From Escherichia phage phT4A: a stretch of DNA of 64,000 nucleotides. Location of the stretch: the sequence record NC_055712.1. One strand, given 5' to 3'. The position numbers and the translations under genes are program-made. Position 1 is the stretch's first letter. Each line of letters starts with the position of its first letter. A model generated the notes under the pieces. The model made no database searches. It worked only from the letters and a program-made list of their open reading frames with translations, and was not told where the DNA came from. This document shows positions 3,740 through 8,266 of this stretch, piece by piece.

Positions 3740-3975
3740 TCCGTTTCAATTCCGTGTTTGTATGCGTCAACGCCCAGAGGGGTGATCACTAAACACATAT
3801 CAGTATTTTTCGTTGGTGAACTAAACGCCATAGATGCATAACCTTTTTGAATCAGGGCATCACGCCCCGATTTACTGGGAACATCGTTGAAATCTAAATC
3901 CAACATTTTTGACGAGTATCTGTAAAGTTTACACAGAACATCAATTTCAGCGCCGGATAATTTCGGGTATGTCAT
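3730..3975 (-). CDS. hypothetical protein
   Basis: 81-aa ORF. Confidence 0.4.
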   Translation of the reverse strand: MTYPKLSGAEIDVLCKLYRYSSKMLDLDFNDVPSKSGRDALIQKGYASMAFSSPTKNTDMCLVITPLGVDAYKHGIETEWR

Positions 3976-4739
3976 TTGTAGTACCTCACAACATGTTCAG
4001 AATACACACGTTCAATGAAATCATTCCAGAAATCGCGATCAACTTCTTTCGGATAACCAGATACAGCCGCCAGCTTTTCAACTTCACACATCGTTGATTC
4101 TAGCGCCTCTTGTACGGTTGCGAAAGGAACACCGCCAGCTTTAACCATTTTCAAAAATGCGCTATCCGGAAGAGGATACACAATATCACCTTCTTTGAAA
4201 ATCTGGATCAATTGCATACCACCGCGCAACGCATGAGAAAGAGCTTTCCAGTCGATCCCGTTGTTGGCTTCTGCTTGCCGTGCGCGTTCCCCGTATTCAT
4301 CCCAGAGTTTATACACGGATTTCTTCATTTCCGCTACAGTGATCGTAGACTGGAATTTACGCCCCAGAACTTCATAAAATTCCTGACAACCTGATTTCAG
4401 TGTTTTGTCTGTAACGAATCGACAAAACTCATTGGTCGGGAATCGGTTAGAAATCTCACCAACTTTGATGCGCTTGCCGTAATTAGATTCATCCACGTTA
4501 CCCAGCAATGATGTACCATACCAGTAATCGGGAATCATTTGTAACACATCAACAACTTCACGCAGTGCCGCCAGGCGAGAACCTTTAACACCATACTTCG
4601 CCGCTTGCTTACGAACATAACCAAACAGGCCAGTTAATTCCGTAGTGTAGAAGCGCGAACGGTTAGCGCGGAGATATTGCCAGATATCAGAGTTAGCGAT
4701 CAGCTTGCTATCATCTGCATGAAGCATATCAATCGCCAC
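3972..4739 (-). CDS. hypothetical protein (5' boundary uncertain, assembly gap upstream)
   Basis: 255-aa ORF; upstream region runs into N-gap 4941-5040. Confidence 0.45.
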   Translation of the reverse strand: MAIDMLHADDSKLIANSDIWQYLRANRSRFYTTELTGLFGYVRKQAAKYGVKGSRLAALREVVDVLQMIPDYWYGTSLLGNVDESNYGKRIKVGEISNRFPTNEFCRFVTDKTLKSGCQEFYEVLGRKFQSTITVAEMKKSVYKLWDEYGERARQAEANNGIDWKALSHALRGGMQLIQIFKEGDIVYPLPDSAFLKMVKAGGVPFATVQEALESTMCEVEKLAAVSGYPKEVDRDFWNDFIERVYSEHVVRYYK

Positions 4740-6043: not shown

Positions 6044-6622
6044 TCAAGCAACCCCCGTAAAGGCGTTTACTATCTGGAAATGATCATCGAAGAATTCCCC
6101 TTGTCGTTGCACGACCTCATGCATAGGTAGCCAGAACGCGTCTGCTGCATCATCAGCACCGCCCATGATACGAGGCAATGAACCATCGTTATTAGGTTCG
6201 AGCTTGATATACTGTGCTACAGTCGGTTTTGAGAAGTACACCGAACGTTTCGGATGATCGAACAGCATCGAATTACGGATAGAACCACGAATAACCTTTT
6301 CAGGTACTTTAATTCGTACTTCTTCCAGTAATTCACGGATCGCACAATCAAGGAACGTTTCGTTACCGTTTTTGTGTCCACCCGGAAGCGCTAACGCATC
6401 TTTACCAGGCGCAAACTTACGACGGATTACTAACACGTGGTTATTACATACGACCACTGAATCAGCCGTGCAACAGTTCAGAGAATCCGGATACGGATAT
6501 TTTTTGAACTTGTCAATCTCTCGTTGCCAGTGCGCATCTTCATGGGACAAACGCTGGAATTCTTTTGTTTGTGTCCATTCATCGATAAAGGAAACCGTAG
6601 TGCTAGGCGCATATTTTAACAA
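6044..6622 (-). CDS. Nudix hydrolase domain protein (probably C-terminal half of a NatV-like NMNAT-Nudix fusion)
   Basis: Nudix box GGHKNGNETFLDCAIRELLEEV; no ATG start (ORF track begins at TTG); reading frame open across stop of upstream NMNAT ORF. Confidence 0.7.
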   Translation of the reverse strand: MLKYAPSTTVSFIDEWTQTKEFQRLSHEDAHWQREIDKFKKYPYPDSLNCCTADSVVVCNNHVLVIRRKFAPGKDALALPGGHKNGNETFLDCAIRELLEEVRIKVPEKVIRGSIRNSMLFDHPKRSVYFSKPTVAQYIKLEPNNDGSLPRIMGGADDAADAFWLPMHEVVQRQGEFFDDHFQIVNAFTGVA

Positions 6623-7116
6623 ATCTTCGTCCCAGCTTCATGGTGTTCCCAGATAATTTTGCGTAAATTGGTCGAGGACAGATCCTGGTCTCCAACCTTC
6701 ACAGATTCAACCGGAATATGATTCCATCCGAATGCTTTAAGCCAGTAAGAATCTTTGTCTTTTTCGTACCCGACGATCGCAATTCGGTCATTTCGAGTTT
6801 CATCGATTGCCATACGAACACGGGATTTCCATTTTTCCTCGTTATAGAGATAATCCGGAATGTGAGCGAATTTGATTCTGGCTGCATCTTCAACATCAAG
6901 TTTGCAGATAGACCAGCGAGTGATCATTGCTTGACGCTGTTTAGCGGTCAATGGGTTTAATGTGTTCGGATATGCATAAGCAGAACCGATCAGAATGTAA
7001 ACCGTATCAGCAACAGCAAGGGCTTCCCTTACCATTTTCTCATGACCATAGTGAAAAGGTTGAAAACGTCCAATTACTACAGCTTTATCATATTTGTGTT
7101 TCATAACGTGCTCCAC
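6616..7116 (-). CDS. nicotinamide/nicotinate mononucleotide adenylyltransferase-like (NMNAT)
   Basis: HxGH motif VVIGRFQPFHYGH and C-terminal SxTxxR motif SSTNLRK. Confidence 0.7.
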   Translation of the reverse strand: MEHVMKHKYDKAVVIGRFQPFHYGHEKMVREALAVADTVYILIGSAYAYPNTLNPLTAKQRQAMITRWSICKLDVEDAARIKFAHIPDYLYNEEKWKSRVRMAIDETRNDRIAIVGYEKDKDSYWLKAFGWNHIPVESVKVGDQDLSSTNLRKIIWEHHEAGTKIC

Positions 7117-7253
7117 GTTTAAAGGTTAATCATAAAACAGACGCAATTATTAAAACACCAAACAATCCACCAATGAAACCAAAGAATAGTGAAATGAGTA
7201 TTGTCAATACGATCTGTTTTATGTTCATTATAGTATTCTCGTTTTAGATGTCA

Positions 7254-7272
7254 AGCCCCCAAAGAGGGGGCT
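7254..7272 (-). terminator. GC-rich hairpin after SPFH gene
   Basis: AGCCCCC-AAAGA-GGGGGCT; weak T-run. Confidence 0.45.
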
Positions 7273-7280
7273 TTAAAACA

Positions 7281-8207
7281 TTATTTACGAGAATCGAAAA
7301 TCACTTTACCCGCATAATCCGAACCCATTACAGTTTGAGGTACGCCACCTTTATAGCGGGTAGAGTAGTTCATCTGTACATCCAGTTCTTTCCAGCGGAT
7401 CATTTCCGGTGTAATGGTGCGTTGCAGGGCGGCGTTGGCTTCTGCTTCTTTCTTCGCTGCATACAGACGGGCATCAGCATCACGTTCGTTAGCGATTGCA
7501 GCGTTTTCACGCGCCTGGCGATCGGCTTCCGCTTGTTTTACTGCTTGTAATGAAGTCTGTTCTACTTTTTGCAGTTCAGCTTTAGCAGCGTTAACCTGTT
7601 CTTCGCGGATCTTCGTGTTAGTTACCTGTTCCATGATAACTTCCGGCAGGGTGATATCCTGCAAGAATACCTGTTTCACAGTGTAACCGTAAGGCCGTGC
7701 ATAATCTTCTACTTCCTGCTGAATTGCGATTTGCAGTTGGTTTTGGATCTTCGCATCAAACAGGTCTTGCGCTTTTGGTACGGATTTACCAAATTCGCGA
7801 ACAGTGGAAAGCAGTTTTTCAGTTACATACTTATCCAGTGCCTGATCCTGATTACCCGCGTTGATACGGTTGATCGGTGCTTTGCTACCGTCGAATTGCA
7901 GCATTACGGTCATATCCACAGTGGATTTAAATTTATCCTGGGACGGAACCTGTAATTTGTCGAACTTCATCGCGATGTCTTTGGTGCTGAACGTATCAAA
8001 CGTTGCCAGCGGGTTTACAATGTGGAAACCAGGCAGTACGGGTTTCGGTGATACTTTACCCATGAAGGTTTCAGTTTTAACCGTACCGTCTTGCACAATG
8101 GTATACATGTTAGGCACTAACCACAGTGCTGCGACTACGCCCAGAGCGATCAGAGAGGTTTTCTTCGGGTTGTTCACGATAGTGTTTAAGTTCATCATAA
8201 TTTCCAT
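7281..8207 (-). CDS. SPFH/band-7 (HflK/C-stomatin-prohibitin-like) membrane protein
   Basis: N-terminal TM helix SLIALGVVAALWLV, SPFH-like core, Ala/Gln/Glu-rich coiled coil AKAELQKVEQTSLQAVKQAEADRQARENAAIANERDADARLYAAKKEAEANAALQR. Confidence 0.65.
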   Translation of the reverse strand: MEIMMNLNTIVNNPKKTSLIALGVVAALWLVPNMYTIVQDGTVKTETFMGKVSPKPVLPGFHIVNPLATFDTFSTKDIAMKFDKLQVPSQDKFKSTVDMTVMLQFDGSKAPINRINAGNQDQALDKYVTEKLLSTVREFGKSVPKAQDLFDAKIQNQLQIAIQQEVEDYARPYGYTVKQVFLQDITLPEVIMEQVTNTKIREEQVNAAKAELQKVEQTSLQAVKQAEADRQARENAAIANERDADARLYAAKKEAEANAALQRTITPEMIRWKELDVQMNYSTRYKGGVPQTVMGSDYAGKVIFDSRK

Positions 8208-8266
8208 AAGTTGTTGTTCAATTCGATAGTTATTCTATCATCACATTTCACGCTGTCAAACTATTT

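Follow-up and report, generated by a model that had tools for sequence, protein, structure and literature searches.

A phage-encoded SPFH/Band-7 membrane protein in Escherichia phage phT4A, a candidate subunit of a periplasm-facing cage

Structures of SPFH cages, among them those of HflK/C, prohibitin, erlin, stomatin and flotillin, were solved only recently, and what these cages do in the cell is debated. An initial annotation of the genome of Escherichia phage phT4A (NC_055712.1), made from the sequence alone, described one gene as coding for an SPFH/Band-7, HflK/C-like membrane protein, which raises the questions of whether the protein is a true member of this group, which of the known SPFH systems it resembles, and what a phage might gain from carrying it. 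The stretch of DNA analyzed here, referred to as the window, is 64,000 nt long, and the coordinates of the features described below are collected in Table 1.

The gene corresponds exactly to an open reading frame of 308 codons counted from the first ATG, with its stop codon at 7281-7283. Translation probably begins at the ATG at 8195, giving a protein of 304 aa, because this start agrees with the annotation of phage Miro, where the gene is a 915-nt CDS, and with the form carried by most homologues (database homologues are mostly 304–305 aa). A profile search against PF01145 (Band_7), as had been suggested in the initial annotation, gave a match to the 308-aa protein above the curated threshold (E=4.1e-19; 69.7 bits, cut-off 23.6), spanning aa 49-213 and positions 14-173 of the 176 in the profile. 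The protein also matched phrog_200 of the PHROG database (E=8e-77). The SPFH match is far above chance level, and the phage gene does specify a true membrane protein of the SPFH/Band-7 group.

Table 1. Features of the SPFH gene, its product and its flanks (positions in the window).
Feature	Position	Strand	Basis
SPFH/Band-7 protein gene	7281..8207	minus	ORF list, Pfam Band_7, phrog_200, Miro CDS
Sigma-70-type promoter-like sequence, early-type	8232..8259	minus	Consensus scan, 11/12 matches, extended -10
GC-rich hairpin, GCCCCC-N5-GGGGGC	7255..7271	minus	RNA fold; comparison with Lw1 and EBPL
32-aa single-TM micro-ORF	7130..7228	minus	ORF list; Lw1/EBPL comparison
N-terminal signal-anchor TM helix, about aa 17-38	8094..8159	minus	Hydrophobicity, flank charges, AF2
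SPFH alpha/beta core, aa 35-186	7650..8105	minus	AF2 secondary structure (pLDDT 75-90); alignment; Foldseek
Long CC1 helix, aa 189-264 (76 residues)	7416..7643	minus	AF2 (pLDDT 82-92); composition; Foldseek
CC2 helix (aa 267-284) and C-terminal tail	7284..7409	minus	AF2, conservation

The AF2 model of the protein (mean pLDDT 79) consists of a TM helix, an alpha/beta core, a 76-residue helix, a second helix and a tail. The TM helix, proposed initially from the sequence, is evident as a hydrophobic segment, with the best 19-residue window at aa 20-38 (Kyte-Doolittle 1.9), and as a modelled helix at aa 14-33; the hydrophobic segment is kept in 32/32 relatives, and a conserved Lys-Lys pair (aa 15-16) lies immediately before the helix. 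Within the SPFH core, a VPSQDKFKS motif (aa 87-95) is invariant in an alignment of 32 sequences. The long Ala/Gln/Glu-rich coil noted in the initial annotation is the single CC1 helix, in which these three residues account for 49% of the sequence versus 24% across the whole protein, and in solved SPFH assemblies this element makes up the cage wall. The CC2/C-terminal region, the part that closes the cap in solved cages, carries conserved TITPEMIRWK and GGVPQTV segments in its tail (same alignment), where the model places short strands at residues 294-296 and 302-304, with pLDDT <50 beyond residue 285.

Searches with Foldseek aligned the model over ~300 columns with solved SPFH cage subunits (probability 1.0, E=1e-14 to 1e-8), the matches being subunits of erlin1/2, PHB1/2, HflK/C, stomatin, QmcA and flotillin. 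The predicted fold, on which the initial assignment had been made to depend, is not an unrelated one and matches SPFH subunits over its full length, and together with the Band_7 match this bears out the SPFH-like core proposed earlier. For cage subunits 9vvj, 9o9z, 7vhq and 8z5g the structural alignment is full-length and includes CC1, and this similarity suggests, by homology, that the phage protein would likewise assemble into a cage.

There is moderately strong support for an N-in/C-out anchor that would place the SPFH domain in the periplasm, based on the charge bias of the family and on relatives with lipoprotein signals. The mean number of Lys and Arg residues flanking the TM helix in 32 relatives is 3.3 on the N-terminal side versus 1.7 on the C-terminal side, and the flanks of the phage protein alone are weakly biased (+2/-1 before the helix, +2/-2 after it). 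A lipobox is present in the first 50 residues of 7 of the 238 full-length relatives, and in six of the seven it belongs to a canonical signal peptide that ends where the TM anchor ends, so the SPFH domain of these relatives should be exported to the periplasm. The predicted orientation is the same as that of HflK/C and prohibitin. Sequence similarity and predicted topology disagree in direction, the former pointing to QmcA, which has a cytoplasmic SPFH domain.

Upstream of the gene is a promoter-like sequence (TTGACA-16 nt-TAGAAT, with TG upstream of the -10) that ends 25 nt before the first ATG, and the sequence between the two contains no TATAAATA motif of the T4 late-promoter type. The homologous gene of T5 is situated downstream of two early promoters annotated in its record, T5P22 and T5P23. 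Given this promoter-like sequence and the early unit of T5, the best explanation is that the gene is expressed early from its own sigma-70-type promoter. At the other end, a hairpin begins 10 nt past the stop codon. The predicted RNA fold of 7240-7290 has an energy of -19.3 kcal/mol (z=-5.9), with 0/200 shuffles as stable, and comparison with Lw1 and EBPL shows an unchanged stem and a loop that varies. The hairpin lacks a T-run and was not called by a terminator scan; since no U-tract follows the stem, its probable role is weak termination or stabilisation of the 3' end of the mRNA.

Directly downstream is the micro-ORF, whose ATG shares nucleotides with the -10 of the promoter that follows. 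Earwig_ER32 has it annotated as a hypothetical gene, and it is kept in Lw1 and EBPL, where 13 of 17 nucleotide differences are third-position changes and none affects the second position of a codon. Co-transcription with the SPFH gene is possible. A comparison of loci did not find it beside the SPFH gene in T5 and AS-gz, and it is specific to the lineage of phT4A.

The neighbours of the SPFH gene, identified by Pfam, are DUF5856 and NMNAT/Nudix genes. The flanking genes searched with Pfam included no NfeD gene, and neighbour clustering across 13 viral lineages and 61 cellular loci revealed no conserved partner gene, with synteny seen at the lineage level only. T5-like lineages carry a gene for an SleB-like cell-wall hydrolase 0.4–2 kb away, and in T4-like phages the SPFH gene is located in the tk-rI region. 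The proximity to the rI antiholin gene is absent in T5, and so it appears to reflect T4-type synteny without a functional link.

A tblastn search with the SPFH protein matched 737 places in 735 phage records, with one match per genome, and in the 64-kb window the family profile detected this SPFH ORF and no other. More than 100 sequenced phages (records of Slopekvirus, the KP27/Miro-like group of phT4A) carry the protein with 100% identity; identity is 91% with RB43 ORF139c and about 76% with the protein of T5 and T5-like siphoviruses, and in a neighbour-joining tree the T5-like and T4-like sequences are intermixed. These identities, together with the tree, point to strong purifying selection and exchange between phage families, and the gene is best explained as an accessory module that virulent phages infecting Enterobacterales, Aeromonas and Vibrio have passed among themselves. 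The initial annotation noted no SPFH protein in T4, and the syntenic position agrees with this: T4 has the mobD cluster between rI.-1 and nrdC.11, where phT4A has the SPFH and NMNAT/Nudix genes.

Chromosomal relatives of the same subfamily occur in Morganella/Providencia and in methylotrophic Gammaproteobacteria (loci L006-L065). They are about 300 aa long with 35–55% identity and a VPSQDK motif and, like the phage gene, specify an N-terminal anchor and stand alone without NfeD, but unlike it they lie in non-prophage, housekeeping contexts. A pattern-based scan of representative genomes of Klebsiella, E. coli and Salmonella found the subfamily to be absent.

The family itself is not new. The T5 protein (AAX12012.1), named 'putative transmembrane protein', carries the note 'IPR001107: band 7 protein' in the T5 record, RB43ORF139c, 44RRORF098c and Aeh1ORF064c were listed as SPFH/Band 7 by Nolan et al. 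2006 (PMC1524935), and the protein identical to that of phT4A is named 'SPFH domain-containing protein' at NCBI, so the phage family has been known at annotation level since 2005–2006. A homologue in Pantoea phage Phynn is named 'prohibitin family protein' in GenBank. The T5 and RB43-type proteins belong to the same family as that of phT4A, agreeing with it in size and in having the TM anchor, the SPFH core and the coiled coil, and each of their genes is early or accessory; there is no substantive difference between them, and these orthologues or xenologues have been catalogued as domain matches only. Our literature search returned catalogue mentions and no functional study of any phage SPFH protein. 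The terms SPFH, band 7 and prohibitin do not occur in the main texts of the HIDEN-SEQ and transposon mutagenesis preprints on phage essentiality, nor in the CRISPRi-ART paper and 49 of its supplementary files. The literature search also returned one paper on virulence and a P. multocida prophage, whose homology to the phage SPFH family is putative. Among the defence and counter-defence models of PADLOC, none matched the SPFH protein at E<=0.1.

The top structural matches of the phage protein are the prohibitin 1/2 and erlin 1/2 cages (PDB 8rrh, 9o9z, 9vvj and 9o9u), which align over the full length with E=3e-14 to 1e-12. The domes of these cages lie on the side opposite the cytosol or matrix, as is predicted for the phage protein, but they are eukaryotic hetero-oligomers with about 16–19% identity to it, and their partners, the m-AAA protease or ER-associated degradation (ERAD), are absent as such from the bacterial host. 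To our knowledge, every structurally solved member of the SPFH family packs into a ring or dome, and each characterised SPFH cage facing away from the cytosol controls how membrane proteins reach a machine that degrades them. The pairs concerned are HflK/C and FtsH, prohibitin and the m-AAA protease, and erlin and ERAD.

We propose that the phage protein is a stand-alone SPFH (stomatin/prohibitin/flotillin/HflK-C) scaffold, which would be produced early from its own promoter and held in the host inner membrane by its single N-terminal signal-anchor helix. The short, Lys-rich N-terminus would remain in the cytoplasm, with the SPFH domain, CC1 and the C-terminal tail in the periplasm. Lateral packing of the subunits would give a ring or dome, expected to be homo-oligomeric because the gene is present in one copy with no paralogue in the window, and the dome would fence off a patch of the inner membrane. 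The role we favour, by analogy with HflK/C, prohibitin and erlin, is one of gating or shielding, in which inner-membrane proteins, either those of the host or the envelope proteins of the phage itself, would be sequestered or shielded from quality-control proteolysis during infection; it is from these systems that we infer both client and function. An early, periplasm-facing, homo-oligomeric cage that shields inner-membrane proteins from proteolysis, and that spreads as a module exchanged between phages, is on balance the probable reading. FtsH is put forward tentatively as the leading candidate protease, and its control by the phage protein is plausible by analogy; the sequence of the phage protein shows no specific link to FtsH. 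The ideas on lysis timing and abortive infection in the initial annotation are likewise pure analogy, given that PADLOC returned no match and that no partner gene is conserved.

A less probable explanation is that the protein is a general membrane-integrity scaffold without a specific protease client. It would stiffen or organise the inner membrane, which would thereby remain energised once DNA has been injected and for as long as an extended latent period or lysis inhibition lasts. Such a role would resemble the stress-tolerance functions proposed for bacterial SPFH and flotillin proteins. It fits the early-type promoter, the presence of the gene in large virulent phages whose cycles are long and place heavy demands on the membrane (T5-like phages, and the tk-rI region of T4-like phages) and the lack of a conserved partner or client gene, and the SleB-like hydrolase near the gene in T5-like lineages suggests an envelope-related neighbourhood. 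In addition, a published study (PMC10434171) connects HflKC of E. coli with tolerance of aminoglycosides and of oxidative stress. However, the nearness to rI is explained by shared T4-like synteny and is absent in T5, and T4 manages lysis inhibition without this gene.

The resemblance to HflK/C that was emphasised in the initial annotation raises another possibility, that the protein is a direct mimic or competitor which would bind the FtsH of the host, take the place of the HflK/C cage or insert into it, and re-tune FtsH proteolysis. The E. coli HflK/C-FtsH structures (PDB 7vhq, 7wi3 and 9cz2) are among the Foldseek matches (E=5e-13 to 1e-8), and HflK/C likewise has an N-terminal TM anchor, a periplasmic SPFH domain (predicted in the phage protein), CC1 and a C-terminal cap. 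The likeness holds for this architecture and for the predicted orientation but does not extend to orthology. No HflK or HflC equivalog in NCBIfam matched at E<=0.1, and when the family profile was compared with PDB sequences, QmcA (E=1.4e-7) and prohibitin-2 (E=2e-5) ranked ahead of HflC (E=6.6e-3), while solved HflK was unmatched. Identity to the HflK/C chains is about 16–19%, no higher than to erlin or PHB, and HflK/C is an obligate K/C heteromer, whereas the phage has a single gene and no K/C pair. An HflK or HflC orthologue is ruled out by the missing equivalog match, the single copy, the lack of an NfeD partner and the closer similarity to QmcA among solved sequences, and a direct mimic or competitor of HflK/C we consider unlikely.

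Slightly less likely again is a scaffold of the QmcA/stomatin type on the cytoplasmic face of the membrane, with the N-terminus outside and the SPFH domain inside. No solved structure matches the phage protein better in sequence than QmcA (E. coli QmcA-YbbJ, PDB 8z5g), by single sequence (E=5e-4) as well as by profile; QmcA is 305 aa long, its IPSQE aligns with the P-S-Q-D/E motif at aa 88-91 of the phage protein, and each system has one SPFH gene, a homo-oligomer being the expected product in the phage. The two differ in that the SPFH domain of QmcA is cytoplasmic and that its gene adjoins one for an NfeD protein (the title of entry 8z5g pairs QmcA with YbbJ), whereas the phage domain is predicted to be periplasmic and no NfeD neighbour occurs in the lineages examined. 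Arguing further against a cytoplasmic domain, Lys/Arg residues are conserved ahead of the TM helix across the family, and in those relatives that have a cleavable lipoprotein signal at this junction the domain can only be exported.

Superinfection exclusion, in which an early, periplasm-facing assembly would occlude or disorganise the site where incoming DNA enters, seems improbable. T4 Imm and Sp would be analogues in role, not in fold, and we know of no SPFH protein that acts in this way. The early-type promoter and the predicted periplasmic location are compatible with it, as is the circumstantial observation that an annotated superinfection exclusion gene of PhiSH19, a Vi01-like phage, adjoins an SPFH gene belonging to another subfamily (PMC3220722), but the housekeeping contexts of the chromosomal relatives argue for a generic membrane function. 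Finally, phrog_200 and many Pharokka-annotated records bear the annotation 'lipoprotein', which the lipobox of some relatives might seem to favour, but the 308-aa protein contains no cysteine (as is true of most close relatives), so that lipid modification at a lipobox Cys is impossible and lipoprotein identity is ruled out; for this protein, the database label should become 'SPFH/Band-7 domain membrane protein'.

As an annotation the finding is an ordinary one, a correct domain call in a family that has been annotated for about 20 years. A more ambitious reading, which we consider doubtful, is that this phage-spread subfamily, which the hosts (Klebsiella, E. coli and Salmonella) lack, forms an early, periplasm-facing, homo-oligomeric cage that captures a specific inner-membrane client. 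Candidate clients under such a reading include FtsH, another envelope quality-control factor, or phage proteins of the holin/antiholin type. If that reading is true, the cage would be a previously unrecognised device for host takeover or envelope control, common to T5-like and several T4-like groups by way of horizontal transfer and carried by the model phage T5 as well as by hundreds of Klebsiella, Salmonella and E. coli phages that are therapeutic candidates. The compact, single-gene and predicted homo-oligomeric version found in these phages would be a tractable system in which to ask what lies inside an SPFH cage and what need of the virus it serves.

The minus-strand ORF that the initial annotation had described as carrying an N-terminal TM helix, an SPFH core and a long coiled coil contains all three elements, as seen with Pfam, AlphaFold2 and Foldseek (see table). 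In the profile search against SPFH/Band 7, the Band_7 domain was placed at aa 49-213 (Pfam E = 4.1e-19; 69.7 bits vs a gathering cut-off of 23.6), and the whole protein matched phrog_200 of the PHROGs database (E = 8e-77). The AlphaFold2 model, built from an alignment of 32 homologous sequences, has a mean pLDDT of 79, with the C-terminal tail modelled poorly. Its top Foldseek matches in the PDB were solely SPFH cage subunits, namely erlin1/2, prohibitin1/2, HflK/C, stomatin, QmcA and flotillin (E = 1e-14 to 1e-8, about 300 aligned columns, 16-19% identity). The true start of the gene is probably the ATG at 8195, since the resulting 304-aa form is annotated in Klebsiella phage Miro and is carried by most database homologues.

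Features of the SPFH gene, its product and its surroundings, with two oxidoreductase genes that follow chromosomal homologues
Feature	Position	Strand	Remarks
SPFH/Band_7 ORF	7281..8207	minus	308 aa; ORF list
TM helix	aa 14-33		AlphaFold2 model
Alpha/beta core	aa 35-186		AlphaFold2 model
Long unbroken helix	aa 189-264		76 residues, 49% Ala+Gln+Glu; AlphaFold2 model
Second helix	aa 267-284		AlphaFold2 model
Sigma-70-type promoter, TTGACA-16-TAGAAT plus upstream TG	8259->8232	minus	just 5' of SPFH gene
GC-rich hairpin	7255-7271	minus	starts 10 bases past SPFH stop codon
Micro-ORF, MNIKQIVLTILISLFFGFIGGLFGVLIIASVL	7130-7228	minus	32 aa, single TM; between SPFH and NMNAT genes
Pyr_redox_2 (NDH-2-like) oxidoreductase	L019 6815-8149		after SPFH gene, Methylococcaceae
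Mqo/DAO-type oxidoreductase	L026 6929-8257		after SPFH gene, Methylophagaceae

Phage-encoded SPFH proteins are already known and widely annotated. Slopekvirus Klebsiella phages such as Miro, KP27 and Earwig_ER32 share 99% DNA identity with this region of the window, and tblastn detected the protein in 735 phage records, almost always once per genome. Identity is at least 99% (mostly 100%) in more than 100 Slopekvirus records, 85-92% in Pseudotevenvirus (RB43, Lw1, EBPL), about 76% in T5-like siphoviruses including T5 and BF23, about 56% in Aeromonas T4-like phages, and 27-38% in Vibrio and other phages. The T5 GenBank record names its homologue 'putative transmembrane protein; IPR001107: band 7 protein', NCBI names an identical protein 'SPFH domain-containing protein', and RB43ORF139c (91% identical to the window protein), 44RRORF098c and Aeh1ORF064c were catalogued as SPFH/Band 7 by Nolan et al. 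2006 (PMC1524935). Among viral models, Foldseek also matched SPFH proteins from giant viruses and from many further phages. The initial annotation knew of no such protein in T4 itself, which holds for the locus between rI.-1 and nrdC.11, where T4 has the mobD cluster and the window phage the SPFH and NMNAT/Nudix genes. The annotated T5 Band-7 CDS (AY587007, locus L002, 3983-4930) overlaps a tRNA-Arg gene (3942-4016) by 34 nt; because it aligns with the window protein only from locus position 4001 onwards, translation probably initiates downstream of the annotated start. Complete T4-like genomes of about 177-178 kb are also deposited as bacterial contigs or 'plasmids' of Flagellimonas marina (NZ_JBHSCL010000010.1, locus L005, 178,077 bp), Enterobacter asburiae and Klebsiella pneumoniae, with homologues P0002 and P0014 among this set; these probably represent contaminating or carried phage DNA that was wrongly labelled as the host's.

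When 1.84 billion cluster representatives were searched exhaustively with phmmer, only 481 clusters matched at E<=1e-3, of which 136 reached E<=1e-10, and by these sequence comparisons the protein belongs to a small, discrete SPFH subfamily. It is orthologous to neither HflK nor HflC: the NCBIfam equivalog models for these gave no match at E<=0.1, and the family profile, searched against all PDB sequences, scored QmcA at 1.4e-7, prohibitin-2 at 2e-5, prohibitin-1 at 4e-4 and HflC at only 6.6e-3. In a pattern-based scan covering 185,579 species genomes, chromosomal copies fell into two groups, one in Morganella and Providencia (52-55% identity) and one in methylotrophic and other Gammaproteobacteria and a few other MAGs (31-43%); no locus in Klebsiella, Escherichia or Salmonella was returned. 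One Morganella copy is flanked by an ADH/TetR pair and an HlyD/ABC-C39 exporter, and a Methylophagaceae copy comes after trpB-trpA-accD-folC; given such ordinary chromosomal contexts, this is a genuine cellular subfamily and not prophage cargo alone. In a rough neighbour-joining tree, built without support values, T5-like and T4-like phage sequences are mixed in one clade with the Morganellaceae copies nested within it, and the methylotroph clade is separate, a pattern that tentatively fits phage capture followed by exchange across unrelated phage families. In two separate chromosomal groups, the gene immediately 3' of the SPFH gene encodes a roughly 440-aa flavoprotein oxidoreductase. HflK/C and prohibitins have been linked to respiratory-chain enzymes, and the adjacency may reflect such a link or coincidence.

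The gene is most likely expressed early, as it follows a sigma-70-type promoter, no T4 late-promoter motif is visible in its upstream region, and annotated early promoters precede the homologue in T5. The hairpin beyond its stop codon (7240-7290: -19.3 kcal/mol, z = -5.9) has an invariant stem and variable loop in Lw1 and EBPL, lacks a U-tract and was not called by the terminator scan. Abutting it is a perfect sigma-70 consensus promoter, TTGACA-16-TATAAT (12/12; 7227-7254, minus strand), from which the NMNAT/Nudix gene is presumably transcribed. The 32-aa micro-ORF has its ATG within reach of this promoter's -10 hexamer, the two overlapping, and would therefore be translatable only from read-through transcripts. 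The micro-ORF is kept in Lw1 and EBPL, where the substitutions clearly point to a coding sequence: of 17 differences, 13 are at codon position 3 and position 2 has none. It is annotated in some records only (Earwig_ER32; missing from Miro, Lw1 and EBPL), and was not found beside the SPFH gene of T5 or of AS-gz. Miro, Earwig_ER32, Lw1 and EBPL each carry the bifunctional NMN adenylyltransferase/Nudix gene as one CDS of 1062 nt. In the window (6044-7116, minus strand), one nucleotide is missing from a GG run near 6616-6625 (GAAGGCTGG to GAAGCTGG), and the resulting frameshift splits the gene into a 166-aa NMNAT ORF and a 192-aa Nudix ORF; the deletion may stem from a sequencing error or be a real inactivating or splitting mutation.

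Only lineage-level synteny is conserved around the SPFH gene. T4-like phages share the order tk, rI, rI.-1, SPFH, NMNAT/Nudix, so that the nearness of the rI antiholin most plausibly reflects this common T4-type arrangement rather than any functional link. A SleB-type cell-wall hydrolase (PF07486) is encoded within 0.4-2 kb of the SPFH gene, in varying placement, in T5 and in several of its siphovirus relatives, whose genomes are larger or smaller (loci L076, 5299-5790; L077, 5319-5813; L102, 5611-6033; L085 of T5, 1964-2431). This may mark an envelope-related neighbourhood.

Lys/Arg residues are conserved in the short flank before the TM helix (family mean 3.3), compared with a mean of 1.7 within 15 residues after it. 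A lipoprotein-signal pattern occurs in the first 50 residues of 7/238 full-length relatives, six of which have a canonical signal peptide instead of the TM anchor and a lipobox Cys (e.g. LLGSC, LLGAC, AIGSC) at the SPFH-domain junction. Some relatives thus export the domain as a lipoprotein, so it must work outside the cytoplasm; together with the Lys/Arg bias, this makes an N-in/C-out topology with a periplasmic SPFH domain the likely arrangement. The SPFH domain of HflK/C is periplasmic and that of prohibitin faces the intermembrane space, the same orientation as predicted here, whereas QmcA is oriented oppositely. The PHROG label 'lipoprotein' probably stems from the lipobox relatives and is wrong for the window protein, which has no cysteine. 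In the true-lipoprotein minority (P0107, P0123, P0137, P0172, P0208, P0266) the +2 residue is Ser, Ala or Thr, which under E. coli-type sorting specifies the outer membrane; an SPFH assembly anchored there would be unusual.

No second SPFH gene was found within the 64-kb window, Pfam identified no NfeD among the flanking genes, and neighbour clustering in 13 phage lineages and 61 cellular loci revealed no partner gene that is conserved throughout either set. With only one copy, the protein would form a homo-oligomer; its full-length similarity to cage subunits implies a ring or dome, which by the predicted topology would sit on the periplasmic side of the inner membrane early during infection. 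To our knowledge, every characterised SPFH cage facing away from the cytosol governs whether membrane proteins reach a degradation system, namely FtsH for HflK/C, m-AAA for prohibitin and ERAD for erlin, and structures of all three cages are among the Foldseek matches. By analogy, we favour a role in which the dome would fence off inner-membrane proteins, host or phage-encoded, from quality-control proteolysis, with FtsH tentatively the leading candidate protease. A membrane-stabilising scaffold with no client seems rather unlikely. Less probable is a strict HflK/C mimic acting on FtsH. The interpretation in the initial annotation is partly supported: the protein is SPFH and resembles HflK/C in architecture and predicted orientation, yet it does not belong to the HflK/C family, and a link to FtsH would be by analogy. 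A QmcA-like scaffold facing the cytoplasm has the best profile score on its side and the predicted orientation against it, and is slightly less probable again. Superinfection exclusion is very improbable. PADLOC gave no defence link for the window protein.

We found no paper reporting experiments on a phage member of the family. An SPFH protein in a phage will not surprise a specialist; what is added here is the predicted periplasmic orientation, the expected homo-oligomer without a partner gene, the placement of the protein in a discrete subfamily that also has chromosomal members, evidence of exchange between T5-like and T4-like phages, and the corrected 'lipoprotein' label. As SPFH cage biology is currently active, the gene is a good, tractable target in T5.
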